Shown here: piece after piece, positions 31,410-35,565 of the stretch | Numbering within the stretch: position 1 is the first letter of the stretch | Layout: every line of letters begins with the position of its first letter | Assembly: GCA_034669905.1 (NCBI GenBank) | Contig: JAXMOL010000039.1 | Location: 1-64,000 of the forward strand | Reading direction: 5' to 3' | DNA: 64,000 nt | Origin: Candidatus Hydrogenedentota bacterium | GTDB lineage: Bacteria; Hydrogenedentota; Hydrogenedentia; Hydrogenedentales; JAEUWI01 | Notes under the pieces: model-generated | What the model was told of the DNA's origin: nothing | What the model saw: only the letters and a program-made list of their open reading frames with translations | Databases searched by the model: none | Translations under genes and position numbers: made by a program

Positions 31410-31564
31410 CGATTGGGCTCGGTCTGAATCGGCACTACCCTCACTTTTTTCGGAATTCACTTGATTGGCGGGTGGATTTATGATTAGATGCTTCTTTCTG
31501 GTTCCGTGTCGGTGCGGTACTTACCGTCACGCGGTTCCGATTAATTGTTTACTTGGGAGAATTC

Positions 31565-32692
31565 ATGATGCGTAGCGGTCTCTTCGGTTGGGTAGCTTGG
31601 GGTATGGTGATGGCGGGTATGGGCAGTTTGTCTGCCGGGGCCGCCGTGCACGCGGTCTACGTGGGTACCTACACCCAGGGCGAAAGCGAGGGGATTTACC
31701 GCCTCGAATTCGACGATGAGACCGGTGCCCTCACGCACAAGGGGCTGGCGGGTGCCATCGAGAATCCCTCCTTTCTAGCGATTCATCCCAGTGCACCAGT
31801 GCTCTATGCCGCCGCCCGAAAAGGTGATGCCCAGGTGGTCGCAGCCTTCCGGATTGAAGCCGATTCGGGACTGCTCACGCCTCTCAATGAACAACCCGCC
31901 GGGGGCAATGGCCCCTGTCACGTGGCGGTGACGCCCGACGGTAAGCATGCCGCCGTGGCCAACTATGGTGACGGTACCGTTTCGGTCTATCCCCTCGAAA
32001 AAGAGGGAGGGCTGGGCACCGCGTCCGCCTTCTTCCAGCACACGGGTTCGAGTGCGGACCCCAAGCGCCAAACGGCACCCCATGCCCACTCAGTAAACTT
32101 TGATGAGACAGGCCGCTACCTGGTGGTGGCCGATCTGGGTATCGACAAGCTCATGGTCTACAAGCGGGAAGGGGGTACCTTTGTGCCCAACGACCCGGCC
32201 TATGGCGAAGTGGCCCCCGGCGCGGGACCCCGCCATTTTGCCTTCCACCCGACCCGTCCCTATGCCTACGTGGTCAATGAGATGGGCAACACGGTCACGG
32301 CGTTCCGCTGGGATGAGAAAACGGGTACCCTCGCCGACAACGGCTCCGTTGGCACCCTGCCGGAAGGCTTCGAAGGGGTTAATCACACGGCCGATATCGA
32401 AGTCCACCCGTCTGGAAAGTTTGTCTTCGCCTCGAACCGTGGGGATGACAGTATCGCGGCCTTCGCGGTGGATGAATCCAATGGCAAGCTCGCACCCCTC
32501 GGCCAGACCAAGAGTGGGGGCGTACGCCCGAGAAACTTCACCCAGTCGCCCAACGGTAAATTCCTGCTGGCCGCCCACCAGGATACGAACGACATTTTTG
32601 TCTTCGCTATCAACCCCGATACCGGCGAACTGACGCCTACCGGTGCCAAGGTAGACGTGCCAGCCGCCGTATGCCTGGTCTTCGCGAAGTAG
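31565..32692 (+). CDS. pgl: Lactonase family protein (6-phosphogluconolactonase, 7-bladed propeller)
   Basis: VYVGTYT, NPSFLA, GPCHV, ANY..G, PHAH, DLG.D, GAGPRH, SNRG.DSI, PRNF. Confidence 0.85.
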   Translation: MMRSGLFGWVAWGMVMAGMGSLSAGAAVHAVYVGTYTQGESEGIYRLEFDDETGALTHKGLAGAIENPSFLAIHPSAPVLYAAARKGDAQVVAAFRIEADSGLLTPLNEQPAGGNGPCHVAVTPDGKHAAVANYGDGTVSVYPLEKEGGLGTASAFFQHTGSSADPKRQTAPHAHSVNFDETGRYLVVADLGIDKLMVYKREGGTFVPNDPAYGEVAPGAGPRHFAFHPTRPYAYVVNEMGNTVTAFRWDEKTGTLADNGSVGTLPEGFEGVNHTADIEVHPSGKFVFASNRGDDSIAAFAVDESNGKLAPLGQTKSGGVRPRNFTQSPNGKFLLAAHQDTNDIFVFAINPDTGELTPTGAKVDVPAAVCLVFAK

Positions 32693-32763
32693 CTGGGCGG
32701 TTGCTTTATGGTGGGGATAGTTATGGTTTAGAAAGCGTACGCGACTTTCAGAAGATTGCCAAA

Positions 32764-32877
32764 GTGGGTTAGGCATCCTGCCTGACTAAAAATCCACGAC
32801 ACGTGTCGATGTAGACTAGCGGTCAATCACGTGGACTCGGAGATCGAGGAAGGTGGCGGGGAGGCCGCCTGACCCAC
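32764..32877. repeat. REP pair upstream of the RAYT gene
   Basis: Type A REP GTGG-GTTAGGCA-TCC-TGCCTGAC at 32764-32786 (+); degenerate inverted copy (minus strand GTGG-GTCAGGC-GGCCTCCCCGCC) at about 32855-32877; CGACACGTGTCG palindrome between them. Confidence 0.8.
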
Positions 32878-32959
32878 GTTGACGTCCATTCTCAAGCGCT
32901 GTTTCGAGCGTAGGAATGCTCAAATACGGTGATATGGTGCCCGTCGGCGGCAGGAGCCA

Positions 32960-33634
32960 TTGAACAGCGATTCAATAGAGGAGTCCGAGCCGAGTCCAGA
33001 GTCTGATTCGCCTTTTCTGCGCCGAGACTCGCCTGTACGCAAAGATCGACGACATCTTCCTCATTGGCGTCTAAGCGGTTCCTTCAACTATGTGACGTGG
33101 CGACTCGCTGACTCCTTGCCCCAGGAGAAGTTCAAGGCTTGGGCGGAGCTAAAACGTCTCTGGCTGCAGAAGAACCCCAAACCATGGGATACGCAGACCG
33201 CAGCCGAGTACGGCGAGCGCTTTCCCAAGCGGCTTGAAACATGGTTGGACGCGGGTTATGGCGCGTGTTTTTTGCGCAAACCGGAATGCGGCCGCATTGT
33301 TGCCAACGCGTTTCATTATTTTGATGGCGAGCGTTACGACCTGGCTTCCTTCGTCATCATGCCCAACCACGTACACGCCCTCTTTCAACTGCGAAGTGGA
33401 TGGGAGATAGAAGATGTCAGCCATTCGGTGAAGAGTTACACCGCCAATGAAATCAACAAGGTACTCGGGCGTCAGGGTGCGCTCTGGCAGCAAGAGGGAT
33501 TTGACCACCTCCTGCGCGGTGTGTCTCACTTGGATCGGTGTCTTTCGTATATCCGAAACAACCCCACTGCAGCCCACCTGAAGACCGACGAGTATGTCTT
33601 CTATGAAGCGCCGGGTTTTGCAGATCTCCTGTGA
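32960..33634 (+). CDS. REP-associated tyrosine transposase (RAYT/TnpA-REP, HUH Y1 family)
   Basis: RRHLPHW, YVTWRLADSLP, FVIMPNHVH (HUH), KSYTA, LWQ...FDH..R, YIRNNP (catalytic Tyr); CAGGAG RBS before TTG; flanked by REPs. Confidence 0.92.
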   Translation: MNSDSIEESEPSPESDSPFLRRDSPVRKDRRHLPHWRLSGSFNYVTWRLADSLPQEKFKAWAELKRLWLQKNPKPWDTQTAAEYGERFPKRLETWLDAGYGACFLRKPECGRIVANAFHYFDGERYDLASFVIMPNHVHALFQLRSGWEIEDVSHSVKSYTANEINKVLGRQGALWQQEGFDHLLRGVSHLDRCLSYIRNNPTAAHLKTDEYVFYEAPGFADLL

Positions 33635-33692
33635 TTCTCGACACCTGGCTTACCATAGATGATTGGAGGGTGCGATGTGGTGCAGGGAAATC

Positions 33693-34510
33693 GAAGGTGT
33701 ACCAAAGTGGGTTAGGCATCCTGCCTGACACAGGGACACCCTGGGTTTACTGTGCGCTGTCGCCATGGCAAAGTTACGTTGAGTCCTGTCGTTGTGGCTT
33801 TCGGAGGCCAGTGCCTTGACACGTGACCCCACACGTGTTTGGGGAACCTACGTAACCGTTGTGTCAGCCTGGAAGGCTAACCCACTTTGGTGCTCGTTTC
33901 TTGAACAGCGTCACGGCAAAGTGACGTAAAACTCCAGCCAGGCGCGTCGTTGTGGCTTTTGGAGCCGAGGGGGCTTGTACAAGGTCTCCTCGGAAGTAGA
34001 AGGTGGACCAAAGTGGGTTAGGCATCCTGCCTGACACAGGGATACTCTGTGTCTAATGTGCGCTGTCGCCACGGCAAAGTGACGTTGAGCTCTGTCGTTG
34101 TGGCTTTTGGAGGCCAGGGTCCTGGTACGTGACCCCACACGTGTTTTGGGAACCTACGTAACCGTTGTGTCAGCCTGGAAGGCTAACCCACTTTGGTGCA
34201 CGTTTCTTGAACAGCGTCACGGCAAAGTGACGTAAAACTCCAGCCATGCCCCGTCGTTTCGACCTTCGGGGCCGAGGGGGCTTGTACAAGGCCCTCTCGG
34301 AAGTAGAAGGTGCACCAAAGTGGGTTAGGCATCCTGCCTGACACAGGGGTACTCTGGGTTTAGTGTGGGCTGTCGCCACGGCAAAGTGACGTTGAGTTCT
34401 GTCGTTGTGGCTTTCGGAGATCAGGGTCGTGTACGTGACCCAACGCGTGTTTTGGGAACCTACGTAACCGTTGTGTCAGCCTGGAAGGCTAACCCACTTT
34501 GGTGCTCGTT
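33693..34510. repeat. BIME/REPIN-like tandem array, 306-307 bp period, about 2.7 units with six REPs
   Basis: Type A REP (+) at 33707-33729, 34013-34035, 34320-34342; type B REP (-, GTGG-GTTAGCCT-TCC-AGGCTGAC) at 33863-33885, 34169-34191, 34475-34497; homologous linkers of about 133 and 127 bp. Confidence 0.95.
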
Positions 34511-34590: not shown

Positions 34591-35565
34591 CTACCCGGGA
34601 AACAATGCCGCCAGAAATTCTTTCTCCGTGCCGTCAAAGCGCGCCTCGGCTAAGAACTCGAGTCCCCGCTGATTACCCCACGAGTAGTTGATCACCAGTT
34701 TCCCCTCAAACTCGCAGTAGTCGAAATCCGAGTTGTTGCGGTTCTCCGCCTCGGCGATGTGTTTGCGCTGTTCCTCGGTGAAATTGGGGTTGGCAATCTG
34801 CTTGTCCTCATCGCCCCACATAAGGAAAGGGTGGATGGGCGTCCGCTCCCAGGTGATGAGGTCCTTCGAGCGGACCACGCTCTGGGCATAGCCACCCTTC
34901 ATGGATTCCAGATAGAAGTTGTAGTAGAAACCGTCTACGTAGCGGAGACAGTGGGGGGCCGTGTAGCGGTCTTTGGCGTAGTTGCACTCGGGCGGCGTGA
35001 GCGTCCAGGTCTTAAGGTCGGTGGAGCGGGCGAAGCGCGCGGTGAAGCGACTGCCGGCCTCTTCGGCAGGCTTGCCGATTTCAAACATGAGGAGGTAGCC
35101 CTGGGGGTCTTTGCAGAGGGAGGTGTTGAAGATGCCGTAGCCCGGGAGATCCAAGGCGTTCCACCGTTCCCAGGTCTGAAGGTCTTTCGACACAAAGATG
35201 TCGACTTTCTCGCCGTCCCAGATGTCCGTAACGGTGACAATGACACGGTCGCCATCGACCGCCGCGCTGCCCAGGTGAAATCCTTCCGCAAAGGCTGGCG
35301 TGGCCTCACCGGTTTCATGGTCGATGAAACGGGAGTAGGATTTCCCCGTGGTGTTTTTCTTGTAGCGTTCTCGGACGTATTCGTAGCGGTAGACCTTGCC
35401 GTTGAACACGATGGGCGTCGTTTCGACCAAGTCGATGTCGATAGTGCCGAGCTTGACGATTTTCGGGCCGGCCGGGTCGGCGTGGCTGGTGCCTGCTGCG
35501 GTCAGGGCGGCGGCGGCGGTGATAGCGCCAAACTGGCGGCGGGTGAGGGTGTGACTGCTTGTCAT
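34591..35565 (-). CDS. Tat-exported five-bladed beta-propeller glycoside-hydrolase-like protein
   Basis: LTRRQF twin-arginine signal from ATG 35565 (GGGAGA RBS); repeated S.DL..W motifs; NNSD.D and YSWGNQ. Confidence 0.78.
   Translation of the reverse strand: MTSSHTLTRRQFGAITAAAALTAAGTSHADPAGPKIVKLGTIDIDLVETTPIVFNGKVYRYEYVRERYKKNTTGKSYSRFIDHETGEATPAFAEGFHLGSAAVDGDRVIVTVTDIWDGEKVDIFVSKDLQTWERWNALDLPGYGIFNTSLCKDPQGYLLMFEIGKPAEEAGSRFTARFARSTDLKTWTLTPPECNYAKDRYTAPHCLRYVDGFYYNFYLESMKGGYAQSVVRSKDLITWERTPIHPFLMWGDEDKQIANPNFTEEQRKHIAEAENRNNSDFDYCEFEGKLVINYSWGNQRGLEFLAEARFDGTEKEFLAALFPG

Follow-up and report, generated by a model that had tools for sequence, protein, structure and literature searches.

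The locus at 32759-34502 of the window (the whole stretch of 64,000 nucleotides that was analysed) is a REPtron next to a BIME, and its host belongs to an uncultured lineage that has been little studied. Very probably a RAYT gene that is intact, was inherited vertically and likely falls in subclass 2.7 is followed downstream by a BIME of three units, and the predicted nuclease likely binds REP ssDNA, nicks nearby and rejoins the ends. Established here are the integrity of the gene, purifying selection, synteny, an exclusive association of the gene with one REP family, 61 dispersed copies of that family, a lineage-specific triplication and a block that is shared between linkers. The mechanistic steps are drawn from the biochemistry of the E. 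coli, Stenotrophomonas and Marinomonas enzymes, as presented in PMC3333891 and PMC8266576. The locus extends REPtrons and BIMEs to Ca. Hydrogenedentota, and it offers a clean substrate pair (REP A and REP B) together with an enzyme of a subclass for which the literature search found no biochemical study.

The rayt (tnpA-REP) gene (32960-33634, + strand) is an uninterrupted ORF with a TTG start that encodes a predicted HUH-Y1 nuclease of 224 aa, as read from the ORF list and the sequence. It stands between a lactonase (pgl-like) gene (31553-32692, +), which lies outside the element, and a convergent, conserved hypothetical gene (34591-35565, -), and both flanking genes serve as synteny anchors. 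The hypothetical protein is without a Pfam or NCBIfam match, yet it shows 77-90% identity across the genus.

The motifs of the rayt protein are NHVH, WQ and YIRNNP. In place are H137 and H139 of the HUH motif (codons H137-V138-H139, 33368-33376, +), W176, Q177 and a single predicted catalytic tyrosine, Tyr197 (33548-33550, +), which stands in the Y---NP signature Y197-IRN-N201-P202. The earlier note had described an intact 224-aa Y1 protein with HUH and Tyr motifs, and the ORF bears this out. The protein lies above the cut-off of Pfam PF01797 (Y1_Tnp), whereas with the NCBIfam RAYT model NF047646 it scores 61.2 bits (E 1e-16), below the cut-off of 80, in a match that spans aa 107-207 only. Its predicted structure (pLDDT 83) has E. 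coli TnpA-REP (4ER8) as the first-ranked Foldseek match (E 8.7e-6, 13% structural identity), with IS608/IS200 following at 5e-4 or weaker. By the Pfam match and this best structural match, the product is a predicted RAYT. The sequence alignment to 4ER8 is weak (E 0.27) and places W176/Q177/D182/H183/R186/Y197 on W94/Q95/E100/H101/R104/Y115, where the E. coli numbering follows published descriptions; the guide-reading W94, Q95, H101 and R104 of E. coli have W176, Q177, H183 and R186 as counterparts. Among the candidate proteins, 978 of 1097 match at E<=1e-10, and in an alignment of the query with 45 of 120 listed homologues (46 sequences), H137, H139, W176, R186, Y197, N201 and P202 are invariant. 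Also conserved in these 46 sequences is a predicted two-helix insertion of ~45 aa (aa 55-98; 33122-33253, +), which comes after strand beta1 and ahead of the core, lies outside the region that is sequence-aligned to 4ER8 and distinguishes the protein from E. coli TnpA-REP.

Subclass 2.7 is described in PMC6006769 (Quentin et al. 2018) by the motifs [ND]HVH, WQ and YI[LR][NQ]NP, a median length of 213 aa, a longer N-terminus, D in place of E100 and canonical GT[AG]G REPs. The rayt protein agrees with this description in its motifs, in a length near the median, in its long N-terminal part and in the D at the position of E. coli E100, and it has no conserved Ser-bearing C-terminal extension. Its REPs, with their GTGG guide and their TCC loop on an 8-bp stem, likewise resemble those of subclass 2.7 REPtrons. 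Here, REP A is 21/23 identical to the subclass 2.7 REP of AFZ59732.1 (AcylA01; PMC6006769 Table S1 row 363), and the two differing positions of the 23 form one compensated pair. Placed by motifs and REP likeness, the gene is likely a subclass 2.7 member, and the RRHLPH/RLADSLP type that had been assigned to it beforehand fits the description of Quentin et al. What sets it apart from other subclass 2.7 REPtrons is the attached three-unit BIME and the Ca. Hydrogenedentota host, which is absent from the consulted parts of PMC6006769. Class 3 of Quentin et al. was ruled out, as that class has Y----Q and CnGA feet. Where records of the closest relatives carry a name, it is Ca. Hydrogenedentota, which makes the host non-proteobacterial, as had been supposed. 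Among the publications listed for Ca. Hydrogenedentota together with REP and transposase, none deals with REPs, judged by title or the start of the abstract.

Seven REP copies adjoin the gene. Each intact REP combines a GTGG guide with a hairpin that has an 8-bp stem and a TCC loop, and type A is distinguished from type B by two pairs in the stem, both of them compensated. Upstream, an intact REP A (32759-32786, +) is followed by a decayed half-REP (32855-32877, -), the remnant of an upstream REP pair, which keeps the guide and left arm only and does not form the 8-bp hairpin; of the upstream pair that had been claimed, the A member is therefore intact and its partner is decayed. Downstream, the array is composed of REP A1 (33702-33729, +), inner (long) linker 1 (33730-33862, 133 nt), REP B1 (33863-33890, -), outer (short) linker 1 (33891-34007, 117 nt), REP A2 (34008-34035, +), inner linker 2 (34036-34168, 133 nt), REP B2 (34169-34196, -), outer linker 2 (34197-34314, 118 nt), REP A3 (34315-34342, +), inner linker 3 (34343-34474, 132 nt) and REP B3 (34475-34502, -), at which the array ends. 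The repeat finder returned four copies of the 28-nt REP A that are 100% identical (starts 32759, 33702, 34008 and 34315; spacing 943/306/307), and the cores of the three inverted REP B copies are all exact. This confirms the alternating A(+)/B(-) order of identical cores at a period of 306/307 that had been read from the sequence. The head-to-tail module of two inverted REPs plus two intervening segments, with three inner and two outer linkers, makes the array a BIME, where the first reading had called it BIME-like. The A-linker-B strand folds into a long A:B stem (-45.5 kcal/mol, vs -49.6 for the homodimer of the genus relative G004), and the idea of an A/B heterodimer as a means against REP-REP pairing found little support, since the A:B stem still forms.

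The linkers have drifted around these fixed cores. Long linkers 1 and 2 differ at 16/133 positions, the number that had been estimated by eye, linkers 1 and 3 at 17 plus one gap, and linkers 2 and 3 at 12 plus one gap, while the two short linkers differ at 13/118 plus one gap; they are thus mutually 87-91% identical, which corresponds to 9-13% drift. Variable columns number 0/56 in the REPs vs 22/133 in the long linkers (Fisher p=3e-4). The longest invariant run outside the REP cores, found in a test for homogenisation tracts, is 45 nt around REP B (permutation p=0.054). A linker length of about 130 bp had been given for the whole array; this holds for the inner linkers (132-133 nt), but the outer ones are shorter (117-118 nt). 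PMC3733652 describes spacers that are alike in length and unlike in sequence, with 20-100 bp as the usual length, so the window linkers are somewhat longer than usual. They are not distinctive in the way that had been suggested, as the linkers of genus orthologues span 99-142 nt and such lengths are the norm in the genus.

Inner and outer linkers are also related to one another. A same-strand homology of ~65 nt joins 34067-34128 of inner linker 2 with 33909-33980 of outer linker 1 at 72% identity, and inner/outer alignment scores are 23-51 vs shuffle means of ~15, being reached by 0/500 shuffles in five of six linker pairs and by 2/500 in the remaining one. The reverse-complement scores were at background in the same shuffle comparison. 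The two motifs of the shared block have no other occurrence near REPs in the genome, and the linker sequence has no match elsewhere in the genome besides the REPs. The window linker shows no homology to the orthologous linker of G004 (0.48 vs 0.45 shuffled).

In the window's own genome (G000), the genome-wide count that had been proposed as a check gave 61 copies of the REP family pattern on 27/102 contigs, all with GTGG, vs 3 in the reversed genome. Exact REP A occurs four times genome-wide, always at the rayt locus, and exact REP B five times. Head-to-head REP pairs less than 260 nt apart combine two different REP types in 14/15 cases. Among 16 Y1 genes, rayt 32960-33634 alone has members of the family at a distance of up to 1.5 kb; the flanks of a few other Y1 genes are truncated by nearby contig ends. 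On sequence grounds, namely this exclusive family association and the REP variants of orthologues, these REPs belong to this RAYT. A dispersed sub-family of nine REP pairs has near-identical cores and ~110-nt linkers that are 51-73% identical (mean 61%, shuffled 46%), and because of this the pattern of fixed cores and drifting linkers is genome-wide. This dispersed family, on contigs C29, C33, C48, C54, C13, C16 and C30, has a constant linker length, and in 4/9 of its copies a 22-nt insertion splits the second REP at an identical place. Tandem repeats of 7 nt abut REP family copies at C40:52510-52620 and C13:17300-17350.

The rayt gene is shared through the genus. Of the 61 genomes searched, 29 have a match (G000 included), as do 8/8 of the other genus members. 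The pgl gene was found in 7/8 other genus genomes. The order pgl-REP pair-rayt recurs in G008 and G002, and in G004 the order rayt-REP pair-hypothetical-DUF5722 equals that of the window. In G005, a short contig carries a pgl 3' fragment, a REP pair and rayt. In G005, G003 and G006, pgl is followed by REPs with no rayt adjoining (contig ends); what follows it in G001 is a degenerate REP, and in G004 a different repeat (contig ends). On the short contig of G005 (C606; L002 / L009), rayt and its REP pair are preceded by a second pgl copy that is reduced to its final ~49 codons, and contig C178 of the same genome has a full pgl and then a REP pair without rayt. Further upstream on C606 lies an ORF that, judging by its motif, we take to resemble an IS66-type transposase. 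In the protein tree, which covers the relatives found in this analysis, the window protein is sister to that of G004 (100/98), inside a supported 8-row clade that also includes the copy on G001 C455 and two close paralogues that are not syntenic.

The comparison of rayt with its G004 orthologue gives a dN/dS of 0.12, which by sequence places the gene under purifying selection. The corresponding dS is 1.28 for rayt and 1.00, 1.10 and 1.64 for three neighbours; a kinase comparison gave 2.73 and is possibly not orthologous. In three further genomes the synonymous values are saturated (pS 0.76-0.81 for rayt vs 0.62-0.72 for neighbours). Hypermutation of rayt was considered and is not shown by these values, its dS against G004 resembling that of its neighbours. 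Orthologues differ from one another in their REPs, which are in each case fully paired, and PMC3686654 describes pseudomonad 'orthogroups' that likewise have their own REP variants. As REP variants change in step among orthologous loci, they would permit the mapping of protein-REP specificity.

The array itself is not shared. Downstream of rayt there is one REP pair in G004 and in G002 and one detectable REP in G008, and in G005 the flank is cut. With at most one downstream pair in 3/3 orthologues with complete flanks, the triplication is lineage-specific; the similar arrays that had been looked for at orthologous loci are missing, and the array, as judged from these sequences, is a local expansion rather than a conserved module. 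A sister clade (G001 C531 and G006 C98) has modular arrays with alternating REP types. At G001:C531 (L038:2035-3971), a paralogous RAYT has a 12-REP modular BIME that spans both sides and intermixes linker modules of three lengths (32, 86 and 102 nt). At G006:C98 (L013:2188-2443), a half REP and what is by eye a copy of the rayt 3' end lie between two directly repeated REPs. More distantly, the best 80 of 546 metagenomic relatives (38-51% identical) have at least one GTRG hairpin nearby in 48 cases and none in 32; the detector does not require repetition, and some single finds are due to chance. At most genus paralogues of 47-62% identity there was no GTRG hairpin nearby.

By analogy with the enzymes studied in vitro, REP A would be read on the top strand and REP B on the bottom, with the enzyme likely binding the guide-plus-hairpin strand as ssDNA. 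It would then likely cut at a guide-chosen dinucleotide 5' or 3' of the REP, linkers included; for a GTGG guide, the Marinomonas rule predicts CC or CA. The 5' end would be held on Tyr197 as a 5'-phosphotyrosine intermediate and then passed to another 3'-OH. In the array, strand transfer between linker sites may first have rearranged a linker and given rise to the shared block, and nick-primed or rolling-circle copying would then have amplified the 306-bp unit. The linkers would have drifted by 9-13% since, with the cores fixed by retention of functional hairpins and/or by conversion that resets them, and ordinary unequal recombination probably also alters the array at present. For E. coli, PMC3333891 reports that linker-site recombination in vitro yields new linker combinations with extra REPs, and it proposes amplification by nick-primed copying. 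On this analogy, linker-site recombination followed by nick-primed amplification would account for the shared block and the triplication.

Sequencing runs bear on both the reality of the array and its variation. Contigs of X1 tile parts of all three units without a single difference, and both X1 and X2, which belong to one study and may derive from the source sample, have contigs that agree exactly with parts of the array. That the array arose as an assembly artefact is unlikely, as had been argued from the divergence of the units. X3 and X9 contain joints whose length is exactly 306 nt; because 60 letters fit both sides, these joints may reflect assembly paths, and they were set aside as copy-number evidence. 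X4 represents a related strain and comes from a different study. There, a contig of 309 nt leads from the 3' end of rayt across REP A into 80 nt of inner linker, passes at 33809/34276 into the outer linker, in register within the shared block, and continues to the next A (a skip of 466). The joint is seen in this single contig, which has a depth of 4.3 and leaves 54 nt on the shorter side of the joint. The linker of this contig has the unit-2 letter at 6/9 listed sites and private letters at 3, and X4 also has a contig that crosses REP B. The X4 strain likely carries a 160-bp single-REP unit, which could be an ancestral intermediate or a later deletion, and its joint through the shared block suggests rearrangement between strains. 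The inner/outer linker scores and the X4 contig fit the in vitro linker-site recombination of PMC3333891, and the shared block and this strain-level joint constitute a small natural test of the model of RAYT-driven BIME assembly. A bolder and rather doubtful proposal treats the locus as an ongoing natural record of what the RAYT does: part of its own inner linker would have been recycled into the outer one by strand transfer, the unit would then have been amplified, and the array would still be rearranging between strains, as in the X4 unit. If true, strain junctions would map in vivo cleavage sites and test whether RAYTs build BIMEs in living cells.

It is quite possible, if short of probable, that the RAYT made and maintains the dispersed pairs while slippage, template switching or unequal crossing-over, independent of the RAYT, produced the triplication and the shared block and left the array as a neutral by-product. 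Such an origin is compatible with the REPtron identity and concerns only the construction of the array. Homologous recombination explains the tandem copies and the X4 joint equally well, this joint being in register inside a homologous block as recombination would give, and the array sequence requires no RAYT. Consistent with this are the single downstream pair, at most, in the three complete orthologues, the scarcity of at least four hairpins on one side of the gene (4 of the best 80 of 546 metagenomic relatives) and the one other head-to-tail REP-pair array seen in G000 (C54, 2 units), which does not adjoin rayt. It is opposed by the multi-unit arrays that adjoin rayt in the window and at the G001 and G006 paralogous loci, and by the rayt 3' end (by eye) caught inside the G006 array, for which PMC2817692 offers a parallel in rayt 3' ends captured in BIMEs.

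That the REPtron is a still-mobile, IS200-like element which recently jumped to this site, with the REPs as its ends, is improbable. Paralogues are indeed several per genome in the genus (up to 9 matches), a second close copy lies at another site in G008 and in G002, and the G001 C455 copy is not seen beside pgl, which indicates that rare duplication or relocation occurs. Against recent mobility, however, G000 has a single close copy, with the next best 47% identical, and the same flanking genes are found in genomes at a synonymous divergence of at least 1. The NCBIfam IS200 model gives 20 bits vs a cut-off of 55, and the motif is Y---NP, not Y---Q; of the features of IS200/IS605 elements (Y---Q, multiple near-identical copies, no synteny), the rayt locus has none.

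It is scarcely credible that the array is CRISPR-like or serves as a memory, with acquired linkers that the nuclease stores or uses as guides. The unvarying repeats, the constant length of the variable DNA between them and the neighbouring nuclease do recall such an array, but the linkers are 87-91% identical copies of one another rather than unique spacers, the repeats alternate in strand, 33730-34007 has no phage match at E<=1 and no genome match beyond the REPs, there is no Rfam match and no sigma-70-like promoter, inner linkers 1 and 2 show no special folding, and orthologous loci (the three with complete flanks) have no array. A structured-RNA reading of the linkers was also rejected, as inner linkers 1 and 2 fold like shuffles (z -0.6 to +0.6) and outer linker 1 is weak (z -2.0 / -1.4), with no Rfam match at E<=1.

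Besides the subclass 2.7 REPtrons, the preferred reading, a REPtron with its BIME, has close parallels in two further known systems. As in the E. coli REPtron (yafM / TnpA-REP, 4ER8) with BIME-2, described in PMC3333891, inverted pairs of two REP types in tandem copies flank a rayt gene whose product has the same fold. The window differs in its guide (GTGG vs GTAG), in a stem of 8 bp that contains one G-T pair and is not interrupted by a bulge, in linkers of 117-133 nt and in tandem units that are 9-13% diverged, whereas E. coli same-locus copies are described there as well conserved. With Stenotrophomonas group 3 (subclass 2.5; PMC2817692, PMC8266576), the window shares REPs of 23 nt (8-bp stem, 3-nt loop), compensatory REP variants, and modular BIMEs in which inverted REPs plus two intervening segments are joined to rayt. 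The Stenotrophomonas proteins are ~151 aa with DH[LF]H, whereas the window protein has 224 aa and NHVH, and the two linkers of the window module, unlike those of Stenotrophomonas BIMEs, are homologous to one another. The earlier note took the locus for the best candidate in the window for an undescribed nuclease-plus-array system. This is not supported, because in one third of the cases reported by PMC2817692 in 2010, E. coli among them, a modular BIME is joined directly to the rayt gene, and the REPtron-plus-BIME layout was thus already known (2010–2012). The differences here are the host phylum, the subclass, the longer and mutually homologous linkers, and the older, more diverged units.

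Several minor observations concern related genes. In G000, a RAYT-like gene at C15:87250-88310 lies above the NF047646 cut-off and is flanked by a different repeat family, also found near C40:52300. More distant proteins of the same type are encoded at C50:6693-7280 (47% identical) and C18:119510-120004 (39%), which have other flanking palindromes and none of the rayt-locus REP family. Two relatives of 376-377 aa (P0076 and P0113) combine PF02580 with the Y1 domain and are possible fusions, and one of the two is labelled D-tyrosyl-tRNA deacylase by its source. Finally, at one rayt locus (L001:2715-3927; L011:347-1384), the linkers of the upstream and downstream REP pairs are 73-82% identical and unrelated to those of the window, a resemblance that suggests copying between the two sides of a rayt gene.
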